A DNA stretch of 64,000 nt from an uncultured virus (IMG/VR IMGVR_UViG_3300033148_002355) (Duplodnaviria > Heunggongvirae > Uroviricota > Caudoviricetes): IMG/VR virus record IMGVR_UViG_3300033148_002355; one strand, 5' to 3'. The notes under the pieces were generated by a model. That model was not told the DNA's origin. It saw nothing but the letters and a program-made list of their open reading frames with translations, and did not search any database. Below are positions 7-63,695 of the stretch, piece after piece; positions within the stretch are counted from its first letter, which is position 1; the number at the start of each line of letters is the position of its first letter. The translations under genes were made by a program, and so were the position numbers.

Positions 7-231
7 TTAGCGAGCATTAAACTCATCTAACCAAACATCTTTTGCTACTGTCCAAGCTGTTGCCCAATCAATATAGGTTTTGGTAATATTCCCTTTATCA
101 TCCTCATAGTCGTGCCATCTACGCCAAACTATTGATAAGTGCATTTTTACAGCTAAAAAATAACGCTCGCTAACATAAGCTATATGTAATGCCTTTTTAG
201 CGAGTTTTGATTGTTTCAGTTTTTTAATCAT
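7..231 (-). CDS. Small hypothetical protein (74 aa, MIKKLKQSK...), translated through an attC-like site arm
   Basis: ORF track 7..276; ATG at 231 follows an A-rich leader. The stop TAA coincides with the GTTA core at 6-9. Confidence 0.7.
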   Translation of the reverse strand: MIKKLKQSKLAKKALHIAYVSERYFLAVKMHLSIVWRRWHDYEDDKGNITKTYIDWATAWTVAKDVWLDEFNAR

Positions 232-299
232 TGTATTTTCTTTTAAGTTAGTGTAGTAATTTATCAAGGTCGGCACTACACATAGCCAAACCGTTAGAG
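168..299. repeat. attC-like palindromic site 1
   Basis: CGCTAAC-ATAA-GCTATATGTAATGCC ... GGCACTACACATAGC-CAAACC-GTTAGAG; 15-bp arms with 2 mismatches that are G:T pairs on the bottom strand. Confidence 0.8.
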
Positions 300-313
300 T
301 GCATTAAAACGCA

Positions 314-530
314 CAATAACAATGTATAAGTAAACATAAAATTTACTTATCTTTTCGGTTTATATGGTAAGTATAACTAAATCCAATAGCTGTTCCTAAC
401 CATATCCAAGTCATTACATCTCTGTGATATTCTACATCAAAGCAAAATATCAAATAGTTAATTATTGCTAATATTAAATATATCCATTTCATAGTCGTAA
501 ATTTTTCGTTTCTTATACTAAGCGTTATAA
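314..530. repeat. attC-like palindromic site 2 (loop contains a whole gene)
   Basis: CAATAAC-AAT-GTATAAGTAAACATAAAATTTAC ... GTAAATTTTTCGTTTCTTATAC-TAAGC-GTTATAA. Confidence 0.8.
343..492 (-). CDS. Small two-TM membrane protein (49 aa, MKWIYLILAII...)
   Basis: ATG at 492 within track ORF 343..552; two hydrophobic segments; lies between the arms of site 2. Confidence 0.65.
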   Translation of the reverse strand: MKWIYLILAIINYLIFCFDVEYHRDVMTWIWLGTAIGFSYTYHINRKDK

Positions 531-41589: not shown

Positions 41590-41841
41590 ATGGCGGCAAG
41601 TTTTTCAGGAGTTCAAGTACAGTTTGATATTCCATCAGGTTCGTTCTCAGGAGTTCAAACGCAGTTTGATATTCCATCAGGTTCGTTCTCAGGAGTTCAA
41701 GTACAGTTTGATATCCCGTCAGGTTCGTTTTCAGGAGTTCAAACACAGTTTGATATTCCATCAGGTTCGTTTTCAGGAGTTCAAACACAGTTTGATATTC
41801 CTATTACAGGCTTTGCACAAATCATAACAAGATATATATAA
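41590..41841 (+). CDS. Small tandem-repeat protein, (SFSGVQ[V/T]QFDIPSG) x ~5
   Basis: 83-aa ORF; most differences between repeat units are synonymous in this frame. Confidence 0.7.
   Translation: MAASFSGVQVQFDIPSGSFSGVQTQFDIPSGSFSGVQVQFDIPSGSFSGVQTQFDIPSGSFSGVQTQFDIPITGFAQIITRYI
41599..41802 (+). repeat. 42-bp tandem repeat, ~4.9 copies
   Basis: Unit TCGTTCTCAGGAGTTCAAACGCAGTTTGATATTCCATCAGGT; no spacers. Confidence 0.92.
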
Positions 41842-49333: not shown

Positions 49334-50505
49334 TACATCATAGGCATTAATATAAACTCCTTTTCCTCTACTACTTCACCTTCGACATTATTAGTGTAAC
49401 TGAAAAACAAAGGTTTATTACTTTCCTTATCTCTTCCTATATGGCAGTTTAGAAACTCTGTATTACAACATTGTAAAACACTTTGTAAATACAATGCGTT
49501 AATCCTTACATTAATATCTTCTTTCAACTCCCCGCCTTTAGTTTCATCACTGATTATATCATTAATTTCATCACTGGACCCTAAGTAACTTTCAGACGCT
49601 ACTTCAATACCTTTCAGTCCTGATTTAACCGTTAACGTTAATATCCTACCTCCCGCTTCCTCTACAGCACTTAAGTTACAAACCCTATCTACACTGTCCA
49701 TTAACTCCTTTGGGCTCACTACGAAGTACCCTAACTCCTTTTGATCAAATATCCTATCTACATCAGGGAATTTAATATCAGTAAATAAATCACAAATAAA
49801 CATTGTGCTTTTATTTTTAATAATAATCACATCTTTATCTACGTGTAAGTTAAATGGTCCTTCAAGTTCTACATTAAAGAAACTAGCTATCAGTTGTTTT
49901 TGAATCATTATATCAAACTCTATATCAAATGAGTTGGTAATGTTTTTCATCTCCATTTTAGCTCCATGTGCTGTGCTTAGTGCTTTAATGAATAAACTAT
50001 CCTTTTCTAACTTAAGTGACAAACATGTTAACGCGGGCCTAGTATCATTAGCTTGGATAAAAGAGAGGCTATCTTTTACACTATCAAATATTTTATTATT
50101 AGTTAATGTAGCAAACTGTTCAATCTTTCTAAACTTAGTATCTGGAAATCCATCTTCAGGAACTCCTTCAATTTTCATGTTGCCCTTTTTAGTTTTGATG
50201 TGTAAGGTAACACCTCCAGCCTCCTTTTCTTTAACTCTTAATATAAGGTCTTCTGATTTTATTGACCTAATAGCTCTTAGTAATAAGTCGCAAGGAATAA
50301 GGCATCTAAAGCCGTCTACTGACTCTGCATTCTTAGCTACTGATATTACCTCAGTATTAAGAGAAGTAGTCCTTAAATGAAGGTTATTACCTTTTCCTTC
50401 GATAAGAACATTGTCAATAATAGGTAGTGTTGATTTCTTAGCGACTATTGTACTGCAAGGAATCAATGCTTTAAGTACTGCTATTCTGTTTACTGTGATC
50501 TTCAT
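49333..50505 (-). CDS. dnaN: DNA polymerase III beta sliding clamp homologue
   Basis: MKITVNR...KSTLPIIDNVLI, DTRPALT, FPDVDRI, INALYL and C-terminal ILMPM; 390 aa. Confidence 0.85.
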   Translation of the reverse strand: MKITVNRIAVLKALIPCSTIVAKKSTLPIIDNVLIEGKGNNLHLRTTSLNTEVISVAKNAESVDGFRCLIPCDLLLRAIRSIKSEDLILRVKEKEAGGVTLHIKTKKGNMKIEGVPEDGFPDTKFRKIEQFATLTNNKIFDSVKDSLSFIQANDTRPALTCLSLKLEKDSLFIKALSTAHGAKMEMKNITNSFDIEFDIMIQKQLIASFFNVELEGPFNLHVDKDVIIIKNKSTMFICDLFTDIKFPDVDRIFDQKELGYFVVSPKELMDSVDRVCNLSAVEEAGGRILTLTVKSGLKGIEVASESYLGSSDEINDIISDETKGGELKEDINVRINALYLQSVLQCCNTEFLNCHIGRDKESNKPLFFSYTNNVEGEVVEEKEFILMPMM

Positions 50506-51536
50506 TTCTTTTTCTTTTTTAGTTTTATGTTTTTAAATATGTGTGCTATTACATCTATGGTCCATCCGTTACCTAGCATTTTATATAGTTGTGAGTCAGA
50601 AACTCCGCAGGACAACATAATGTCTATTATGTGCTCTGGTATAGTTTGAAGGCGGGCGCACTCTAAAGGGGTTAATCTCCTTACCCCTTTATCGTTTTTA
50701 ATATAAGGGTCAGTTTTACCGCACTTAGCGTACCTAGCTGTAAGGCAGTAACTTTTTTTCGAGTCTTTATCGTGAGGTTTAAACCGGCCTTTAAAAGCCG
50801 GACTACCGTGAGTAAGCCCGTTTATAAGTTTTTCAGATAAATAGTATTTTTCATCTATTATAACTAAATTATCCTTACCTACAGTAGTTAAACAATTACT
50901 CTTACTATCTTTTCTAACCTCTATACGTTGCTCGGTTTTGCCTGCCATACTATCTACGGTATGGTCTGCTCTTTTACCATCTACAATATAGCGCCCTCTT
51001 TGCGCCCCTATCTTCTCACTCCCGTCCTCCAAAATATCCTTTAACAAAACACCCTTATCTTCCGGTTGTCCTATTCCTGGTATATTAGTCCAGTATAACC
51101 TAACCCTGTTTTGAGCAGAGACTAACGAGCTGTTTATCATTATAGGCTCTACACCCATGTATTTAGATATAATATCTTGACTCTCCTTTTTCATCCTTAC
51201 GTTTTCAAGTAAGAAGTATTTAGGTTGTAATTCCTCTTTAAGTCTAACGAACTCAAAGAATAACTTACTACGTGGATCTTCAAAGTTTAACTGTTTACCT
51301 GCAAATGAGAACCCTTGACAAGGACTGCCTCCTATTAGTAAATCTATATCAGGTAAACCAAAGAAGGTTACGTTCCTAACGTCTCCCAATCTTTTAATGT
51401 TTGGATAAATAGCTTTAGACACTTGCATAGCGTACTTATCTATTTCACTAGCGTAGTAATTATCTACTTTTATCCCCGCCTTTTCTAAAGCCATCATGCC
51501 GCAACTCTTTCCGTCGAATAGTGAAACTACATTCAT
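50502..51536 (-). CDS. DNA (cytosine-5) methyltransferase
   Basis: SLFDG, EID, GGSPCQGFS, LLENV, QNRVRLYW and KMLGNGW motifs; ATG at 51536. Confidence 0.92.
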   Translation of the reverse strand: MNVVSLFDGKSCGMMALEKAGIKVDNYYASEIDKYAMQVSKAIYPNIKRLGDVRNVTFFGLPDIDLLIGGSPCQGFSFAGKQLNFEDPRSKLFFEFVRLKEELQPKYFLLENVRMKKESQDIISKYMGVEPIMINSSLVSAQNRVRLYWTNIPGIGQPEDKGVLLKDILEDGSEKIGAQRGRYIVDGKRADHTVDSMAGKTEQRIEVRKDSKSNCLTTVGKDNLVIIDEKYYLSEKLINGLTHGSPAFKGRFKPHDKDSKKSYCLTARYAKCGKTDPYIKNDKGVRRLTPLECARLQTIPEHIIDIMLSCGVSDSQLYKMLGNGWTIDVIAHIFKNIKLKKKKK

Positions 51537-51537
51537 A

Positions 51538-52308
51538 TCAATATTTAATTTCAGTTTTAATAATTTCAATAGTGTCTTTAGGAAAATCATCTGCTTTACT
51601 AATTACCCATAAAGCATAATCCCTATCATCATACACAGGTTTACCTCTATTTTTACCAAAGTTGTAACATATATTTTCTTTGTCATCTTTGATTAGTTTA
51701 CCTGTACTATCGAAATGGTTGTTCTTATCTCTTAGTTCATCAAAGTAAAAATCTATAATACCTTCAACAGTGTCAGGAATATCTTCTTGCTTAATCATTT
51801 CATCAAGGAGTATCTTAGTTGCTTTAGCGTCGTTGTAAGCATCGTGACTGCCTACTAACTCTTTCCCGGTGTATCTTTGATACATAGCTCCTAACTTCCT
51901 ACTATATATCTTATTAACTAATTTCATCACATCTAAGGTCATTGTTTCTGGTTCCTTATGGAAGTGGCAGTTAGCTTCGTACATCTCTCGTCTAAGCAAA
52001 GGTAAATCGAACCTATCAATGTTGTACCCGCAAACTATGTGAGTACTGATAGCTGCTTTGATAGTAGATGCTACCATATTGAACTTAGGTTCATCTTTAA
52101 CCATTTCATCTGTGATACCGTGTATTTCTGTAGCTTCGGGAGGAATAGGCATACCGGGGTTTACTAACCATGTCCTCTTATCTATTTTCCCGTTAGGCCG
52201 TACACGTATAGCAGCGACTTGAACTATCTTATCAGTTGATATGTTAACTCCAGTAGTTTCTAAGTCGAGCCAAACTAACGTGTTGTTTTCTTGGTTGAAT
52301 TTGTTCAT
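51538..52308 (-). CDS. DEDDh 3'-5' exonuclease (Pol III epsilon-like)
   Basis: DLETTG, GYNIDRFD, HDAYND and C-terminal NFGKNRG. Confidence 0.9.
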   Translation of the reverse strand: MNKFNQENNTLVWLDLETTGVNISTDKIVQVAAIRVRPNGKIDKRTWLVNPGMPIPPEATEIHGITDEMVKDEPKFNMVASTIKAAISTHIVCGYNIDRFDLPLLRREMYEANCHFHKEPETMTLDVMKLVNKIYSRKLGAMYQRYTGKELVGSHDAYNDAKATKILLDEMIKQEDIPDTVEGIIDFYFDELRDKNNHFDSTGKLIKDDKENICYNFGKNRGKPVYDDRDYALWVISKADDFPKDTIEIIKTEIKY

Positions 52309-52791: not shown

Positions 52792-53238
52792 TTAAAATCT
52801 TAAATCTTCATTTCCTCCTCCCATAGTCCTATAAATCAAATTATCTATATGTTCACTATGAGTTGACTTCTTATTTGTACCTGTATCAATTAACGTTTGA
52901 TTCCCTTGAGTTACTAAAGGTATCCTATGTCCTCCTTCTCCGTATATCGTTCCATCTATTATATCTTCACATACCAACTTAGTTATCTTTTCAAATACAT
53001 CGTTCAATCCGTTCATTTTAGATGTTACTAAAACATATATTATAATCTCACTTAACAACTCTGAAGCTTTGACTATATTTCTGTCTTGGTTAAAGTATAT
53101 ATAATTTTCAATAAGGTCCTCCATCTTCTCTCGAAACTCTTGTAATTTAACATCATTTAAGATAACTGGTTTTCTAGGTATTTCATGATTACCTAATATC
53201 TCTGCTATTGTCCTGATTTTTTTATCTAATGACTTCAT
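52792..53238 (-). CDS. Hypothetical protein (possible degenerate MazG-like fold)
   Basis: 148 aa, helical; weak resemblance only. Confidence 0.55.
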   Translation of the reverse strand: MKSLDKKIRTIAEILGNHEIPRKPVILNDVKLQEFREKMEDLIENYIYFNQDRNIVKASELLSEIIIYVLVTSKMNGLNDVFEKITKLVCEDIIDGTIYGEGGHRIPLVTQGNQTLIDTGTNKKSTHSEHIDNLIYRTMGGGNEDLRF

Positions 53239-55049
53239 ACTTTTTGAAATCTACTGGTTATACTTTCTTTGATATTGTTCTTCTTCTCGTAATCTTGTAT
53301 AAGCGACTTGAATAGTTTCTTCTCCAGGTTCCCATATTCTACTATCCCTGCTTTCTTGTGATCTATAGCTGAGTTAATATCATCTGTTTTACTTTCAATA
53401 AGGTTATATATCCTCTGGTCAATACTATCTGGTATCATTGTATACATTACCTCTACATCTTTAGTTTGCCCCATTCTGTGAGCCCTTTTATATGGTTGCT
53501 CTAATAAATCGGGGGTGAATCCCATATCCATAAACACTACCTTACGAGCATTAACTAAGTTAATACCAATACCTGCAGCTATAACTTGACCTAAGAACAC
53601 TTGTACCTCTGTACGTTGCTTAAACTTATCAATACGGTTCCTTCTTTTAAGACTACTAACACTTCCATCAATAAGAACAGCTGTATTACCTAACTCATCT
53701 TTTAATTGATTAAGTACAGTTTTAAAGAAACTGAACACTATAACCTTTTCTCCTTCCCTGTTAAGCTTTCTGATTAACTTGAGGACATCAGGTATTTTAG
53801 ATTCACTACAAAGCCTGTTAAGAGTCATTATGTTACCTCTACTCTTCATTGAAGCTTTCCTTTTAGTACTCCTCAAGTAAACTAATCTCTCTGTGTTTCT
53901 AGTACCTGTCCCTATTTTGTTTTTAATCCTATGTTCTACTTCTTTAATTTCAGCAGTTACCTCTGCAAGTAGCTTCTGAGCGTCATACATCTCTTTTATA
54001 GCCTCTTGGTACTTCTTTGTACTCTTATCATTCATTTCGAAGTAGTAGCTCTTAATAACGAGCTTAGGTAAGTCTAACTCTTCTTCTGATTTCTTTCTAA
54101 GCATCCAGTTGGATAACTTTAATCTAAAGTCTTCTACATTCTTAATACCTGTAACTTTTTGACCGTTCCCTTTAGCGTACCTTCTTTTGAAGTCTGTAAA
54201 GTTTTTACCCATTGGGTGTTTGCTTAAGTGTAGTAAAGCGAATATATCAGTTATTCTGTTCTTGATAGGTGTGCCTGTTAAGAAGGTAACTCTTGCTTTA
54301 GGATACTTGTTCAAAAGCTTCCTAACTTGCTTGAACTTATCTGTACCCTTATTTTTTATATAATGAGCTTCATCTATGATAATGTGATCGATTGGGGACT
54401 TGGTTATATGCTTGATGTACTTCTCTACACTTTCATAGTTAACTATTACAAATGACTCTTTCATTACACTGAACATGCATTTATTCCTGTCAAGCAAAGT
54501 AAAGAATAAAGGGTTAAATCCCCACTCTTCTGTAAGGTCTGTATACCAGTTCCATTTAGTTAATGAAGGGCAAATGATTACTGTACGTTTTAAGTTGAAT
54601 AGTTTAGTAAGTGAAGCAGCGAATAGTGTTTTACCTAATCCTTGTTCAAATGCACATAAGTTGAATTGTCTATTTCTGAAGGACCATAAAGCAGCAGCTT
54701 GATACTTCATTAGTTTCTTTGGATCACCTTCCTTGTCAAATAGTCCTTCGTATAAAGTCGCGGGAGAATACTTAGCTACAAATTCTTTAGCATCTTTTAA
54801 GTATATCCTTTTAATAAGATCAACAAATACTTTCTTCTTATCTACATTGAACTTATTGTCCATTAAGTTACGATCAACGTACTTAACGTATTTAAGTAAT
54901 GCTTCTTTACACGTTATACGAATATCTACAACTACCTTTCCTTTGTCTTTGACAGTCATATCAAGACATTCAGCCGTTAACAGCTCCTCGTCTGAGAAGT
55001 GTTTTTGGAACAAGAGCCTCTTGTCGTCTTTACTTAACGTTATCTTCAT
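53235..55049 (-). CDS. SNF2-family helicase/annealase
   Basis: FEQGLGKT, IIDEAH, LTGTPIKN, GIGINL and KRAHRMGQ. Confidence 0.9.
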   Translation of the reverse strand: MKITLSKDDKRLLFQKHFSDEELLTAECLDMTVKDKGKVVVDIRITCKEALLKYVKYVDRNLMDNKFNVDKKKVFVDLIKRIYLKDAKEFVAKYSPATLYEGLFDKEGDPKKLMKYQAAALWSFRNRQFNLCAFEQGLGKTLFAASLTKLFNLKRTVIICPSLTKWNWYTDLTEEWGFNPLFFTLLDRNKCMFSVMKESFVIVNYESVEKYIKHITKSPIDHIIIDEAHYIKNKGTDKFKQVRKLLNKYPKARVTFLTGTPIKNRITDIFALLHLSKHPMGKNFTDFKRRYAKGNGQKVTGIKNVEDFRLKLSNWMLRKKSEEELDLPKLVIKSYYFEMNDKSTKKYQEAIKEMYDAQKLLAEVTAEIKEVEHRIKNKIGTGTRNTERLVYLRSTKRKASMKSRGNIMTLNRLCSESKIPDVLKLIRKLNREGEKVIVFSFFKTVLNQLKDELGNTAVLIDGSVSSLKRRNRIDKFKQRTEVQVFLGQVIAAGIGINLVNARKVVFMDMGFTPDLLEQPYKRAHRMGQTKDVEVMYTMIPDSIDQRIYNLIESKTDDINSAIDHKKAGIVEYGNLEKKLFKSLIQDYEKKNNIKESITSRFQKV

Positions 55050-55071
55050 TTCTGTTTTCTGTTGTCTTAAT

Positions 55072-55129
55072 GGTTAACTAATTTTAAAAACAATTTCGTT
55101 CCTCAACAATTTTTACTATTGCGTTATAA
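55072..55129. repeat. attC-like site (short, degenerate)
   Basis: GGTTAAC...TAAAAA...TTTTTAC-TATTGC-GTTATAA; right end matches ATTGCGTTA at the window start. Confidence 0.5.
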
Positions 55130-55384
55130 AACATCTGTTTGTTTACTCCTTTCAAAACCGTCACAACCTAAGCATTGTGATTCACACCTAACCCCTCCAA
55201 CTTCTTCATTAGAGCAAACAAACGATTTCATAACATCAGGTATATTTAAATTTTTCAACTCTGTCCATGCGTGAGCATAAGCTTGTGATTTTCCATCACT
55301 TCTGCCTTTTTGGTATTCACTACTATCATCCCTTGGTGTATTAGCACCTTTTTTAAATACTTCTAAAATTTCGTTAATATTCAT
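55124..55384 (-). CDS. Hypothetical protein translated through an attC-like arm
   Basis: 86 aa; KNLNIPDVMKS is encoded by the site arm; the stop lies in the GTTA core. Confidence 0.7.
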   Translation of the reverse strand: MNINEILEVFKKGANTPRDDSSEYQKGRSDGKSQAYAHAWTELKNLNIPDVMKSFVCSNEEVGGVRCESQCLGCDGFERSKQTDVL

Positions 55385-55433
55385 CTGTGTAAATTTATTC
55401 GTTAAAAATCAAAACATACCTGCAACATTACCT
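55228..55433. repeat. attC-like site with mutated core (ATT instead of GTT)
   Basis: TCATAAC-AT-CAGGTATATTTAAATTTTTCAAC ... GTTAAAAATCAAAACATACCTG-CAAC-ATTACCT. Confidence 0.75.
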
Positions 55434-55455
55434 ACAAGTGCTAAGTCGGTAGGTA

Positions 55456-56034
55456 CTAATAATGTTTCTTCTTAAATTCTTCTGCCATTATATCCTGCAT
55501 ATTACCTTTGTAATATCGTGCTGTTTCAGGGTTACTAATTTCATATATCCCTGAACCCATGTTTGGTATGATTAATCCACAAGTAAGAAAATCAAAACAT
55601 AAAGCTATGTTTTCTTCTCGTATTAAAAACTCTTCTTTAGTTAACCTAAGCATTTCATCTACGTTATCGCACATTTGAATATACTCATCATATTTTTCGG
55701 TTATGGCTTCCAATTTCTCAGAGGTAATACATTCTTTAATGTCAGGATATTTTTTGATAGCTTCTATTGTTTTGACCCAATAACTACCTATGCGCTCTCT
55801 ATCTCTATTTAGTCTATCCATTTCATAAGCCATAAAATGCTTATCGTCCTCCATTTGTTGTTTAAATCTTAGTGCAGGTGTGTCAGTTTCAAACGAAACA
55901 AACTCATTATTCACTATCCAATTTTTATCATCAATCTTTGTGATGTTATTTTTATATTCGCTTTTACTACTTAATGTTTTTGAGAAGCTCCATCCCATTA
56001 AGCCAAATAATCCTATCATCAATATTATTTCCAT
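55456..56034 (-). CDS. Membrane-anchored hypothetical protein (cassette gene)
   Basis: 192 aa with N-terminal TM; bounded by ATTACCTAC (55427) and GTAGGTAAC (56069-56077). Confidence 0.7.
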   Translation of the reverse strand: MEIILMIGLFGLMGWSFSKTLSSKSEYKNNITKIDDKNWIVNNEFVSFETDTPALRFKQQMEDDKHFMAYEMDRLNRDRERIGSYWVKTIEAIKKYPDIKECITSEKLEAITEKYDEYIQMCDNVDEMLRLTKEEFLIREENIALCFDFLTCGLIIPNMGSGIYEISNPETARYYKGNMQDIMAEEFKKKHY

Positions 56035-56070
56035 TTTCTTAATTTAATCAGTTTATAAATCCGCACCAGT

Positions 56071-56135
56071 AGGTAACACTATCTATATGCAAAACTCCGT
56101 TGCACTACGTTCAGCACATAGCCAAACCGTTAACT
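56071..56135. repeat. attC-like site (short, 65 bp)
   Basis: AGGTAAC-ACTAT-CTATATGCAAAAC ... GTTCAGCACATAG-CCAAACC-GTTAACT; shares CACATAGCCAAACCGTTA with site 1. Confidence 0.8.
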
Positions 56136-56358
56136 ACTTCTCTATAATCTCAATCAAAGTAAGTGTGTCAGGATCGCATAACATGGCTAATGGCTGACCT
56201 TTAATATGCACTTGCATTTTACCGTTAACCATATCTTTATTGTGATGTGTTATTCCTACTTTACCAGTGTAGGTTTTTACTTTGAATCCGGTACTACCAA
56301 CTCTAAAGTTGTGATCTAAGTACCAAGCGTTTGGATTTGTCTCTTCTGTTATTTTCAT
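56134..56358 (-). CDS. Hypothetical protein
   Basis: 74-aa ORF ending at the site core. Confidence 0.65.
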   Translation of the reverse strand: MKITEETNPNAWYLDHNFRVGSTGFKVKTYTGKVGITHHNKDMVNGKMQVHIKGQPLAMLCDPDTLTLIEIIEK

Positions 56359-56371
56359 AATATTTGTGAAT

Positions 56372-57814
56372 CTAATTATTTATAAACGCTTCTGCAAACC
56401 GAACCTCAGCATCCCCGTTCGCATTCCAATCTACCATCTCTATAAATAACTGATACCCTTTCTTTTCTATGAACTTTAATACTTTACTAAAAGTTTCTTT
56501 ATCGAATAAACTACCATCTTTAATGAATATACATTTAAGGTTAGGATTCATAGCAATTGCTAGTTGTACTCCTACTCTGATAATAACACTGCTAGGATGA
56601 TGGTCCCCGTTAAAAGGTAATCCTTCAAAGTAAACTCCTTCTTCATCAAATGATAATCCTTTAACTGGTAAGGTACTCGTTTCAAAAGACTTTTGCTTTT
56701 CTAATACGATAGCTTTTAAACGTTTGGTTAACTTGTTAGCTTTAGCTTCTTGTTTAGTCACCTCAGCGTGTTTAGTAACTACATCTTGGATTTTAGTATA
56801 CATCGCTGTGTATTGTACTAGTTCAGTTTGTTTATCTCTTAGCTTATCTACGTCAGGTTCTTCATTCTTTTCAATCCAAGCTTTTACTTTAACTATCTGT
56901 TCTGCTGAAGCTTTACCTCTGACCTGAATAAGGTCATGATCATGCATCCTGTTTTTAAGGTCCAGAAGAAACCTCTCATTGTCTTCTCCTAAGGCTTTAG
57001 CTTTATCTAAAACGATTCTATAATACTTAGTTAACTCCCTTGATTTGTCGCCTTCTAAAATACCTGTTTGATGTTCAGTTAATGCTGTTCTTGCCTTGTT
57101 ATACTTGACAACACCGTCAACCATATTCAAAAGCTTATTATTAACCTCTGTGAGCTCTTTACTCTTGTCTTCAGTATACTTCTTTACATCCTCTTCTTTA
57201 ATGTCTGTAGCACTGCTTAAATTAGCTTTTAAGGTTTTGATGGTTCTGTTAAGTTCAGTTCTTTCATCACGTTTTTCCTTATTCTCATTATCCAAATCTT
57301 CAAGTAATTGTTTTTCATCATCTGTTAAAAATTGTCTTAATACTTCTACTTGTTCTTTTAAACCTGCTTGACTTACTTTACCACTACTTGTTAAACCTAA
57401 CCTTATAAACTCATCAACATCGAAACTAACGTCTCCTATGATGTCACGTTGCATTGATTTAGTTTTAATCTTGTTACCTTCTTCATCTACTACTGTAACA
57501 CTCCCTTTTTGATTGCTTTCAGTAAAGTTCATTATGTATTGGAAAGTCTTTTGTTCTCCATCTAAGTCACCTTTGATAACTAGTTTAACGTGTGCTGACT
57601 CTTCTCCTTTTTTGATTGCTTTAGAAGGGACTGCTTCGCTATTTATCGGGGATTGTATAGCTCTAAGAACAGTAGATTTACTACCCCCGTTCTTTCCTAC
57701 TACAACTATACTCTTTCCTTGTATATCAATTACCTTACTAGATAATGATTGAAAGTTCTTTAACTCTGCTGAAATGATTTTCATTCCTGTCTCTTTTCTG
57801 TTTAACTCGCTCAT
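56372..57814 (-). CDS. SMC/RecF-like AAA ATPase with coiled coil
   Basis: ELKNFQSL, Walker A variant GKNGGSKST, central coiled coil, IFIKDGSLFD and QLFIE. Confidence 0.8.
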   Translation of the reverse strand: MSELNRKETGMKIISAELKNFQSLSSKVIDIQGKSIVVVGKNGGSKSTVLRAIQSPINSEAVPSKAIKKGEESAHVKLVIKGDLDGEQKTFQYIMNFTESNQKGSVTVVDEEGNKIKTKSMQRDIIGDVSFDVDEFIRLGLTSSGKVSQAGLKEQVEVLRQFLTDDEKQLLEDLDNENKEKRDERTELNRTIKTLKANLSSATDIKEEDVKKYTEDKSKELTEVNNKLLNMVDGVVKYNKARTALTEHQTGILEGDKSRELTKYYRIVLDKAKALGEDNERFLLDLKNRMHDHDLIQVRGKASAEQIVKVKAWIEKNEEPDVDKLRDKQTELVQYTAMYTKIQDVVTKHAEVTKQEAKANKLTKRLKAIVLEKQKSFETSTLPVKGLSFDEEGVYFEGLPFNGDHHPSSVIIRVGVQLAIAMNPNLKCIFIKDGSLFDKETFSKVLKFIEKKGYQLFIEMVDWNANGDAEVRFAEAFINN

Positions 57815-57829
57815 TTGTCTGTTTGCTTT

Positions 57830-58024
57830 TTAGTTTTTGTTTTTTATATATACTACTGCTTTACCTTTTATTGCTAAATCGTATATCATTTTCCTTTGAT
57901 AGTCACGTAGGTTTAAAGGATGCCTGAATCCGTCTTCACTGAGTACGCAGGTGTATTTCTGTACAAAGTAAAGAAGATCATTTTGACACTTATCTAACTC
58001 TTCGTTTAGTTCTTGTTCTGTCAT
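57830..58024 (-). CDS. Small protein resembling a terminase N-terminal fragment
   Basis: ELDKCQNDLLYFVQKY...PLNLRDYQRKMI resembles the N-terminus of T4-like TerL. Confidence 0.5.
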   Translation of the reverse strand: MTEQELNEELDKCQNDLLYFVQKYTCVLSEDGFRHPLNLRDYQRKMIYDLAIKGKAVVYIKNKN

Positions 58025-62364: not shown

Positions 62365-62586
62365 TTAATTAGGTAATAGACTAAGCATATTGTCCCAAAC
62401 GCATACACTGTCATACATTCCATTACCTGAGTACGATATTGCTCCTACATTTACAATATCAAACTTTTCACCGTTTGGAATCTCTACTGTTTCGGGTGTT
62501 ATGCTTGTTATTAATACTTTTCTATCGCTTACATTACATAAGTAAATGCAACCTTCTTTTAATTGTGATATTTTTAATGTTTCCAT
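62365..62586 (-). CDS. Hypothetical protein (cassette gene)
   Basis: 73 aa; bounded by GTTGTGCTTA (62358-62367) and TAAGCACAAC (62595-62604). Confidence 0.7.
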   Translation of the reverse strand: METLKISQLKEGCIYLCNVSDRKVLITSITPETVEIPNGEKFDIVNVGAISYSGNGMYDSVCVWDNMLSLLPN

Positions 62587-62597
62587 AATTTAACTAA

Positions 62598-62689
62598 GCA
62601 CAACACTACCTATAAAAGCATAGCGTCGGGCTACTTGGTTTAATAATTAAGCGTATTACTGGCTACGCTTTATAGCCTCAACGTTGTAG
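62598..62689. repeat. attC-like site
   Basis: GCACAAC-ACTAC-CTATAAAAGCATAGC ... GCTACGCTTTATAG-CCTCAAC-GTTGTAG. Confidence 0.8.
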
Positions 62690-62693
62690 TGCA

Positions 62694-62937: not shown

Positions 62938-63414
62938 TTAATATCTTACTCCTGTTTCTAAAAAATCATATTCATTAACTTCTAAACTTTCCTTAATACA
63001 TTCATCACTCATTAAGTATTCATACTCTTTTTGTAGCATATTAATATACTGTAACCCTATACTATCTTTAAACATCCTGATAGTACCTTCTTTTTGCTCT
63101 AAACCTTTCATTACTCTCTCTCTCACTTGTTTCTCAAAACATTTAGCAGTGATATACGTTTGACATTCTTTCCCGTGCTCTGTCAATATTGTATTAACAA
63201 TTTCATCAATAGGCTTATTTAGTACTATTTCAATCTCTCGCCTGTCAATGTCAAAACTTTTAATTGTTGCACCTATATTCTCCATATCATCATAGATGCA
63301 ATTCCACCACTCGCAGTATTCTACGTTAAAATATCTGTTATCTTCAATTGCTTTCTCTTGTGCTTCCTTGCTTAGTTCCTTGAACTTGTAAAGGTTTAAT
63401 TTGATTGTTTTCAT
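62938..63414 (-). CDS. Hypothetical early protein (MKTIKLNLYKFKELSKEAQEKAIE...NEYDFLETG)
   Basis: 158 aa, acidic; pattern common among small early phage proteins. Confidence 0.75.
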   Translation of the reverse strand: MKTIKLNLYKFKELSKEAQEKAIEDNRYFNVEYCEWWNCIYDDMENIGATIKSFDIDRREIEIVLNKPIDEIVNTILTEHGKECQTYITAKCFEKQVRERVMKGLEQKEGTIRMFKDSIGLQYINMLQKEYEYLMSDECIKESLEVNEYDFLETGVRY

Positions 63415-63645
63415 AGCTTCTATTGATTTTTATTTGTAGTTATGTGTATTTATTGGTTTTTAAAATTCTCCTACTGTTACATTAACTGTTATCTCTTCGC
63501 CTTCCTCCGTGCAACTAGTCCAAGTAAAAACAACTTGTTCGCTGTTCGCTCCTATTCCTTGTTTCATGTATTCAAGGTCGCTTTGTGTAAAGTTTAATTT
63601 GATTGTTTTCATAGCTTCTATTGATTTTTATTTGTGGTTATGTGT
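63394..63645. repeat. 54-bp direct repeat (63394-63447 and 63592-63645)
   Basis: GTTTAATTTGATTGTTTTCATAGCTTCTATTGATTTTTATTTGT[A/G]GTTATGTGT; one mismatch. Confidence 0.9.
63460..63612 (-). CDS. Small hypothetical protein (50 aa, MKTIKLNFTQ...; not in track)
   Basis: Hand-translated; shares its start region with the downstream gene. Confidence 0.65.
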   Translation of the reverse strand: MKTIKLNFTQSDLEYMKQGIGANSEQVVFTWTSCTEEGEEITVNVTVGEF

Positions 63646-63695
63646 GTTTGTATACTTGTATGTAAAAAAAGTGCTTAGAGTCCTTTAAAATAAGT

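Follow-up and report, generated by a model that had tools for sequence, protein, structure and literature searches.

The window (the whole stretch of DNA that was analysed, 64,000 nt of the uncultured virus IMGVR_UViG_3300033148_002355 in IMG/VR) carries on its minus strand two small genes, here called ORF86 and ORF74. ORF86 (55124–55384) encodes 86 residues, consisting of an N-terminal module (residues 1–45), a junction LNIPDV and a Cys-rich C-terminal module. The junction lies within the peptide KNLNIPDVMKS, and the stop codon TAA (55124–55126) is also the TAA of a TAAC core. ORF74 (7–231) encodes 74 residues including the peptide KALHIAYVSER, and its stop is likewise a TAA followed by C. 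Both genes finish with TAA and then CGCAAT as read on the minus strand; the plus strand there reads ATTGCGTTA. The two ORFs, their peptides and their stops at the TAA of a core are as given in a preliminary description of the sequence, which went on to propose that the two proteins are translated through the arm of a palindromic site, and that strand exchange, if it occurs at the GTT in that arm, would join different N- and C-terminal parts.

In both genes, the start codon is enclosed by the arms of an inverted repeat. That of ORF74 is a long-loop copy, at 166–300 on the minus strand, of an element that we call E1. Its 5′ arm is TAACGGTTTGGCTATGTGTAGTGCC, its 3′ arm GGCATTACATATAGCTTATGTTA is read as K-A-L-H-I-A-Y-V, and the ATG of ORF74 is in the loop. 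The copy has a 6-bp outer stem and a 16-bp inner stem, and folds with a z-score of −4.16 (0 of 200 shuffles). The fold of positions 168–300 has an energy of −28.5 kcal/mol and 22 base pairs, with three G·U pairs in the inner stem, each having its G in the 5′ arm. Directly before the TAAC of this E1 site, at the cassette end, is a small hairpin (298–315, minus strand; GTGCGTTTTAATGCAC on that strand).

The site of ORF86 is a diverged copy of E1. Its 5′ arm (55413–55430, TAATGTTGCAGGTATGTT on the minus strand) shares 13 of 18 positions with the canonical arm; its 3′ arm (55229–55249, minus strand) agrees with the 3′ arm of E1b at 13 of 16 positions and is read as L-N-I-P-D-V-M. The two arms enclose the ATG of ORF86 at 55384. 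As CAGGTATGTTT and AAATATACCTG they are paired in the minimum-energy fold; over all 226 nt of the stretch, the folding energy is ordinary (z −0.38).

ORF86 lies within a variable segment, 55069–56140, which on the minus strand is bounded by TAAC ... GTTAAC. The second gene of this inserted segment is ORF192 (55456–56034, minus strand). One end is marked by a short-loop copy of E1 (56069–56136, minus strand), whose TAAC core is 1 nt past the stop of the ORF at 56134–56358. A 52-nt unit between TAAC and GTTA, here called E2 (55075–55126, minus strand), has no significant fold (z −0.18). Searches of PHROGs and Pfam found no family for ORF86, ORF74 or ORF192. AlphaFold, run on ORF86 with 34 sequences, predicts three helices for the N-module and a coil for the junction (pLDDT 60.6, pTM 0.24).

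The window has a G+C content of 35.8%. Structural genes are on the plus strand (about 1.7–44 kb), while replication genes and small genes are on the minus strand. PHROGs and Pfam identified a terminase, portal, tail fibres, endolysin, primase, sliding clamp, exonuclease, helicase and a crAss 'muzzle' domain, a set of genes from which we conclude that the source is a crAss-like phage. An AAA ATPase was also identified. Neither a tyrosine recombinase nor an integrase was found among the window ORFs scanned (55 by PHROGs, 48 by Pfam). The longest contig encoding the same 86-residue protein is 70,894 nt, so that the window leaves about 7 kb of the genome uncovered. The sequencing runs in which this region occurs carry marine, seawater, sediment or hydrothermal-vent metagenome labels. 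Among 50,697 cultured phage records, megablast of 53000–58000 found no close relative, and neither ORF86 in tblastn nor two E1 copies in blastn gave any match. The relatives found by tblastn with the helicase in cultured phages are all below 60% identity, the best rows being at 25–29%.

Structure of E1

On the gene strand, E1 has the form TAACGGTTTGGCTATGTG ... CATATAGCTnnTGTTA. An internal loop separates its outer stem, TAACG/TGTTA, from the inner stem, and both the inner stem and the loop that it carries are variable. Copies found with a model are 55–157 nt long, and the commonest bacterial form is about 190 nt. The word TAACGGTTTGGCTATGTG is common, on the minus strand, to the stretch 56074–56131 and to positions 279–296 of the window. 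Its degenerate 18-mer form gave 124 matches in a scan of IMG/VR, with about 130 estimated by chance. The exact word accounts for 40 of the 124, and these 40 have long conserved continuations; the AT-rich subset with extended similarity was kept, amounting to 62 distinct copies, and the GC-rich rows were dropped. A partner arm CATATAGC[TC]nnTGTT[AG] is present, by this strict pattern, in 27 of the 62. Its offset is +39 to +43 in 13 copies, +71 to +78 in five and +96 to +110 in eight, while one further match is the arm of the next element.

In the RNAalifold consensus from 19 short-loop copies, an internal loop lies between an outer stem of 5 bp (UAACG/UGUUA) and an inner stem of 8 bp. A covariance model made from this consensus (R1), built solely from copies other than 166–300, matches the window at 56069–56136 (E 1e-16), 166–300 (E 5e-8) and 62596–62690 (E 0.024), so that the window holds three model matches plus the one diverged copy at ORF86. 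The match of 166–300 (minus strand) runs from end to end, across the 80-nt loop with the start of ORF74. The third match (62596–62690, minus strand), upstream of the ORF at 62365–62586, is itself diverged, and its arms GGCTATAAAG and CTTTTATAGG preserve their pairing by compensatory changes.

The AAC and GTT of the outer stem (the pairs A-U, A-U and C-G) are invariant in all 68 distinct E1 copies (69 were aligned to R1). In the alignment (A7), which was fitted to R1, 97.7% of cells pair compared to 85.6% in shuffles (0 of 500; 68 distinct copies), 113 cells are changed on both sides compared to 28.3 (0 of 500), six of the eight inner-stem pairs have two-sided changes, and the covariation score is 0.324, as against 0.009–0.084 with the partners slid. 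A model-free comparison finds that the base ending the 5′ arm and the one beginning the 3′ arm co-vary (GTG with C, GTT with A), and that C-G in the arms is replaced by G-C or A-T.

These data dispose of one explanation, namely that two unrelated small ORFs are alike by chance in a weak peptide pattern and in the context of their stops. It is true that L-x-I-x-x-V is a weak pattern, that the ORF86 and ORF74 proteins are unrelated, and that their common 8-mer TTGCGTTA is not enriched in the window (55 matches with at most one mismatch, 51.8 expected). At the codon level, the pattern TTANNTATANCNNNTGTT, which was defined partly from one of its two sites, has two matches in the 64 kb (172–189 and 55232–55249, minus strand) where 0.05 are expected, a count reached by one of 100 shuffles. 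The R1 matches, including that of 166–300, the covariation of the arms, and the same arm being translated in about 20 other loci (below) refute coincidence, to which we attach almost no weight.

A more serious proposal, and the main rival to the one that we favour, is homologous recombination at a structured regulatory element. E1 would be a cis-regulatory RNA between early genes, acting in processing, attenuation or translation control, and, being the one conserved stretch of DNA in cassettes that are otherwise unrelated, it would be a substrate for homologous recombination between co-infecting phages, which would shuffle the cassettes, and also the N- and C-terminal parts where an ORF starts inside the element. 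PeSLs act in this way in T4-type phages, according to the available text of PMC2839356 and PMC4122927. In the phage the transcribed strand of E1 is the better-folding strand, with G·U pairs conserved in 65 of 68 and 61 of 68 copies; the G·T wobbles are all on the transcribed strand, and a role as RNA is therefore possible. Short-loop copies fold strongly as RNA (z −5.86 for L039) and, by eye, seem able to form another hairpin, GCATATA/TATATGC, with a T run after it; long-loop copies enclose a start codon. Against this, no sigma-70-type promoter or terminator was found in the E1 copies of the window. A simple scan gave six promoter-like sites in the window (7.3 expected); on the gene strand, the E1 copies contain none of these, and the minus strand has nothing resembling a terminator. 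The scan was of the sigma-70 type, the promoter types of Bacteroidota being outside its scope. Nor does any Rfam family match E1-type elements or E2, the attC models of IntegronFinder and HattCI not being in Rfam. For phi14:2, the available text of the preprint states that the early transcripts have no detectable upstream motif in common, and it gives no promoter sequence for comparison.

Translation of the 3′ arm and the modular proteins

In about 20 of the 62 distinct IMG/VR copies, mostly those with a long loop, a small ORF begins at an ATG in the loop. The ATG is about 44–68 nt past the 5′ arm (+13 in L021), and the site-encoded part amounts to the ATG plus 13–50 codons within an intact site. 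These ORFs, of which ORF74 is one, read the partner arm as (K)AL[HN]I..V and then continue into unrelated sequence. Across the 18 complete ORFs, the codons at the junction are GCA (17 of 18), TTA (18 of 18), ATA (18 of 18) and GTT (17 of 18); this conservation is an independent observation, because the loci were picked via the 5′ arm. The peptide variant follows the paired base of the 5′ arm, CAT (H) occurring with ...GTG and AAT (N) with ...GTT. Similarly, the second variable residue is encoded by GCT or GGT (A, G) where the 5′ arm has GGC..., and by CCT (P) where it has GGG.... The junction DNA of five loci, retrieved via other parts of their proteins, is alike at synonymous sites. L-x-I-x-x-V is the translated 3′ arm of E1, and is not a protein motif in origin.

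Translation through the palindrome arm, always in the same frame, was therefore correctly anticipated in the preliminary description; it is seen at about 20 loci and in the junction codons of the 18 complete ORFs, and the motif maps to a palindrome arm wherever DNA was at hand. The same is true of termination at the TAA of the next core, which applies to both ORFs and often to others: TAA followed by C ends 8 of the 18 complete IMG/VR ORFs, and in the viral record G003 the upstream ORF has as its stop the TAA in the TAAC of the next site in 6 of 15 cases. The suggestion that the arms are kept open in one frame holds as regards the common frame, but not as regards its being kept open. Among 47 arms, translated or not, the motif frame carries stop codons in three, the second frame in 46 and the third in 26. 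It is the sole frame nearly free of stops, and the common frame is forced by the arm sequence, because the other frames mostly carry stops.

A profile search of 1.84 billion representative proteins found 44 small proteins of the ORF86 family, of which 36 have the motif. (Of other matches, L002 and L003 extend over 13 residues and were set aside, and L005 and L006 were dropped as GC-rich chance matches.) Among the 36, the 13 proteins of N-type A have C-parts from 12 different clusters and the 7 of N-type B have C-parts from 7, while the 18 proteins of C-type 1 have N-parts from 17 clusters. In homologues, the N- and C-parts do occur independently of one another, and the break falls at the motif, in line with the preliminary description. 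The degree of this independence is partly a sampling effect, because the hits were chosen by having one half in common with the query, but the position of the break at the motif is not.

The sole close relative of ORF86 is P0002, which a 716-nt ENA contig encodes. In a protein comparison it keeps 96% identity to ORF86 as far as ...NLNIPDV, beyond which the two are unrelated. The converse case is provided by L004, a 1,410-nt metagenome contig with the same Cys-rich C-part behind a different N-part. Judging from the sequence of P0002, exchange does take place at the 3′ arm or close to it. ORF74 has five relatives, with 66–85% identity; in the relatives P0007 and P0008 (P0008/L007) the conserved C-part is kept, and about 23 residues at the N-terminus, the motif among them, are replaced.

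One reading of these mosaics is the original one, that regular site-specific exchange at the GTT core inside the motif gives loop-encoded N-termini different C-termini, and would make the site a combinatorial generator of proteins. The position of the P0002 break, from the residue next after the V, is as expected from this, and the N-type A proteins all diverge directly after the V codon. Conservation of the junction DNA falls after GTT plus one to three bases, and in several junctions ATG or GTG follows directly after GTT. Top strands of attC do recombine, less often than bottom strands, in the assays described in the available text of PMC9892861. However, a further (T)CGTT is conserved 9 nt past GTT in many junctions, and the alternative N-termini of the ORF74 family join only past this extra (T)CGTT. 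In L008, C-type 1 is joined at another point and the motif is absent, and the break in P0002 is known from protein, not from DNA. The evidence from whole cassettes, presented next, also tells against regular exchange at this position.

Cassette boundaries in phages and bacteria

A related phage (G001), whose helicase protein is 78% identical to that of the window and whose DNA is about 70–84% identical where aligned, is without the segment 55069–56140; it is also without ORF86, ORF192, ORF74 and E1. Closer comparisons come from metagenome contigs (assembled contigs, not reads) from four marine runs of four studies, compared with 54500–56700. In long contigs the helicase side and the far side match with 0–2 differences. 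Among the listed pieces, near-identical contigs turn unrelated after 55125, 55126 or 55129, that is at the GTTA of the ORF86 stop, and on the far side the divergence is before 56119 or 56131. No listed piece spans 55127–56118 whole, and only loose ends were taken as evidence. In contigs of runs X2 and X10, the sequence past the GTTA is that past another GTTA in the window, at 298–321, and a near-identical copy of the 298–315 hairpin follows the helicase-side GTTA. The units 55075–55126 (E2) and 56074–56131 also occur in other contexts at several-fold higher depth, which for E2 is 46–55 compared to 8.9 for the phage. The breakpoints between near-identical phages are 5′ TAAC cores, at which the segment is replaced.

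Conserved elements of 50–130 nt would also serve homologous recombination, and the breakpoints would then only mark the edges of homology. Several observations agree with this main rival. The exonuclease and AAA ATPase encoded in the window could support recombination; no recombinase was found in phage records (PF00589 matched 0 of 5 E1-bearing viral records); and the breakpoints of the N-type B proteins are spread over about 8 residues, not one point.

Other E1-bearing viral records have 1–16 copies. The one with 16 (G003) has all its sites on the plus strand, in two clusters, with a spacing of 0.3–1 kb within clusters. Its ORFs mostly start 10–30 nt past a site, or inside the loop.

The exact 5′ arm (18-mer) was found in 119 stretches of species-representative genomes, overwhelmingly of Bacteroidota. 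In one Bacteroidales chromosome (G007), matches to the 5′-arm word begin at about 2,564,330 and extend over about 60 kb. Sites matching R1, of about 137 nt and on one strand, were found in every stretch searched, as far as 2,627,093, with nine sites in one 8-kb stretch. (A whole-genome R1 search of five bacterial genomes was not used; it scored 150 of 1,300–2,000 candidates per genome and missed known arrays.) At 340 nt past the last site is a gene for a 383-residue tyrosine recombinase, at L261 5433–6584. The NCBIfam entries that it matches best are 'site-specific tyrosine recombinase/integron integrase' and TIGR02249 'integron integrase', in both cases under the curated cut-off; the TIGR02249 match is in two stretches, with E 2e-52 and 178.5 bits (cut-off 265).

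The orientation of genes and sites differs between the two settings. In the window and the IMG/VR loci, the genes are on the same strand as the better-folding E1; in the G007 array, the large cassette ORFs are opposite to it. Because the orientation is opposite, the phage cassettes are not simply borrowed bacterial ones, and represent a distinct, inverted form. In the bacterial array, the conserved fold is consequently absent from the mRNA of the large ORFs. This tells against the main rival, along with the location of the arrays next to an integron-integrase-like recombinase and the invariance of AAC/GTT in stems that otherwise vary, as in attC. We regard a regulatory RNA shuffled by homologous recombination as rather unlikely.

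From the orientation of the G007 sites relative to the genes, and by the logic of integrons, the R′ crossover core is the TAAC next to GGTTTGG, and this is the core where the phage contigs diverge. With R′ at the 5′ TAAC, the site, the leader, the cargo and the final TAA form one cassette. Leader and cargo would thus move together, which together with the breakpoints between near-identical phages, at the 5′ TAAC and not at the 3′ GTT, argues against the GTT in the motif as the normal point of crossover. That part of the original proposal is not supported as it stands, and regular exchange at the GTT is in our judgement distinctly improbable.

Interpretation and comparison with known systems

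On the basis of these observations we suggest that E1 is probably an attC-type cassette recombination site, with small phage genes built into the sites and swaps at the TAAC cores. The principal reason is that the same family of sites forms dense arrays in one orientation between single genes, beside an integron-integrase-like recombinase. Small accessory genes of this crAss-like marine phage and of many uncultured relatives are built into E1 in such a way that the ATG is in the loop, the 3′ arm is read and the cargo comes after it, the stop often being supplied by the TAA of the next TAAC core. Cassettes would be swapped at TAAC cores between otherwise identical phage genomes, in an exchange that we take to be site-specific and that may be carried out by a recombinase of the Bacteroidota host acting on the phage sites. 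The mosaic of N- and C-parts would then have two causes: the conserved leader is encoded by the site while the cargo differs, and there is occasional exchange in or beside the 3′ arm.

A fuller version can be put forward more tentatively, as one possibility. Lytic crAss-like marine phages may carry integron-type cassettes whose recombination sites themselves code for protein, and an IntI-like recombinase of their Bacteroidota hosts may swap whole mini-genes from phage to phage and between phages and the bacterial array, while the second core may, less frequently, undergo exchange on the opposite strand and so give rise to chimeric N/C proteins. If this is true, the system would be a generator, at the level of DNA, of combinations of small early proteins, perhaps directed against host defences. 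If a host enzyme recombines the sites, lytic phages and their hosts would share one pool of cassettes.

The attC-type reading links three subjects that are normally considered separately, namely small, hypervariable early genes in uncultured marine phages, cassette sites of the integron type, and the Bacteroidota, a phylum in which integrons had been considered almost absent. A leader encoded by the site explains why the same 6–10 residues are present in dozens of unrelated small phage proteins, and in annotation a motif of the L-x-I-x-x-V type should not be taken as a protein domain. The components also suggest a test system, consisting of a site of 60–135 nt, the candidate bacterial recombinase and a predicted crossover at TAA|C.

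Shufflons and other invertible C-terminal segments (Rci/sfx of R64; Gin and Cin of Mu and P1) likewise have recombination sites within coding sequence and join one N-part to alternative C-parts. In those systems a single locus holds all the alternatives, in the form of inverted segments, and a dedicated recombinase has its gene alongside. In contrast, the window has two motif sites, in unrelated genes 55 kb apart, and no recombinase match among the ORFs scanned.

The resemblance to attC is closer. Like attC (about 55–140 nt), E1 is an imperfect palindrome of similar length with paired outer (R″/R′) and inner (L″/L′) boxes. It has an invariant AAC...GTT in the outer stem, an unpaired internal spacer, and an inner stem and loop that vary while the stem remains paired. 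It forms arrays in one orientation between single genes, with cassette boundaries at the core. There are also differences. Beyond the triplets, plus R after GTT, the cores of E1 do not fit RYYYAAC/GTTRRRY; those of the window are GTTATGA, GTTAGCG and GTTAACT, with varying 5′ sides. The recombinase beside the E1 array is under the curated cut-off for IntI. In integrons it is the bottom strand of attC that folds, and the orientation characteristic of attC, with the cassette ORF upstream of its site and opposite to the recombinogenic strand, is held by the G007 array and not by the phage genes. Finally, in the phage E1 the start codon and N-terminus are in the loop, the arm is translated and the next core provides the stop.

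Clusters of attC without an integrase (CALINs) have been described in virulent phages, including a marine Polaribacter phage, and are recombined by IntI1 (PMC9892861, in the text available). In the phage, E1 resembles this arrangement, no integrase having been found in the window ORFs and viral records scanned; in the bacterial array, it is near an IntI-like tyrosine recombinase, one that scores under the curated cut-off. For Bacteroidetes, the available part of the IntegronFinder 2.0 report (10.1101/2022.02.28.482270) describes integrons as rare, with only In0 elements earlier and one complete integron, in Salinibacter ruber.

As far as the available text of PMC2839356 and PMC4122927 describes them, the PeSLs of T4-type phages contain sigma-70 promoters and terminators, and mediate homologous recombination. 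They share with E1 the character of short, conserved, structured intergenic units beside small accessory genes in plastic regions, and insertions, deletions and replacements between close phages end at them as they do at E1. E1 differs in lacking such a promoter or terminator in the simple scan, and in having invariant AAC/GTT cores, coding sequence and counterparts in bacterial cassette arrays.

It is worth adding that a contribution of recombination sites to translation is already known. According to the available text of PMC8876359, attI1 supplies translation signals to cassettes that have no translation initiation region, and fused cassettes are known. A limited literature search, and the same text, gave no description of ORFs that start inside attC loops. 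The likeness is that a recombination site provides start signals or N-terminal residues, and that fusions across degraded sites occur. As that text presents them, however, those cases concern attI or a truncated attC and are exceptions, whereas here the site is intact, and the ATG in the loop and read-through of the arm are regular features.

A C-terminal module common to two viral contigs

The C-terminal module ...KSVAKQYAEFC..CDREGLPLLELDDYI is common to two viral contigs, occurring at L141 8823-9050 (from G003, a viral record with 16 E1 sites) and at L010 1359-1619. It is preceded by unrelated N-modules in the two contigs. This is a further instance of N/C reassortment at the L-x-I-x-x-V motif, the translation of the 3' arm of the attC-like E1 site.

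Insertion, repeats and other features of the phage window

At 50502-51590 (-) the phage encodes a DNA methyltransferase (phrog_116, E 6e-74). The gene is missing in the related phage G001, where its flanking genes abut, and is another accessory insertion. The covariance model detects no E1 site at its edges.

ORF192 (55456-56034, -) is followed immediately past its stop, within 55385-55455 (-), by a 7-bp hairpin (TACCTAC ... GTAGGTA). At the site of ORF86 (55124-55384, -), this hairpin overlaps the beginning of the diverged 5' arm.

Direct repeats are also present. Within ORF 41590-41841, at 41602-41811 (+), a 42-nt unit is repeated in tandem about five times; the repeat finder reports this as 4 overlapping 84-nt copies with 83-94% identity to the reference copy. 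The minus-strand gene block carries at its upstream end a 61-nt direct repeat (63391-63451 and 63589-63649; 95% identity, 198 nt apart), each copy of which contains a start region. A tRNA gene at 2339-2409 (+; Rfam RF00005, 58.3 bits) separates the minus-strand small genes from the terminase region.

Bacterial E1 loci

In the bacterial array (chromosome G007, Bacteroidales), a 57-codon ORF recurs on the E1 strand about 16 nt past several E1 sites: at L176 5350-5523 and 5731-5904, at L211 4149-4322, 4530-4703 and 7125-7298, and at 3974-4147 in L261, the stretch carrying the integron-integrase-like recombinase. It is a repeated mini-cassette in 'phage' orientation.

In a Sunxiuqinia MAG, a group II intron (L167 730-1354; RF00029, E 2e-10; also RF01999) and an E1-type element lie about 2.7 kb apart; integron-linked group II introns are mentioned in PMC7923331.
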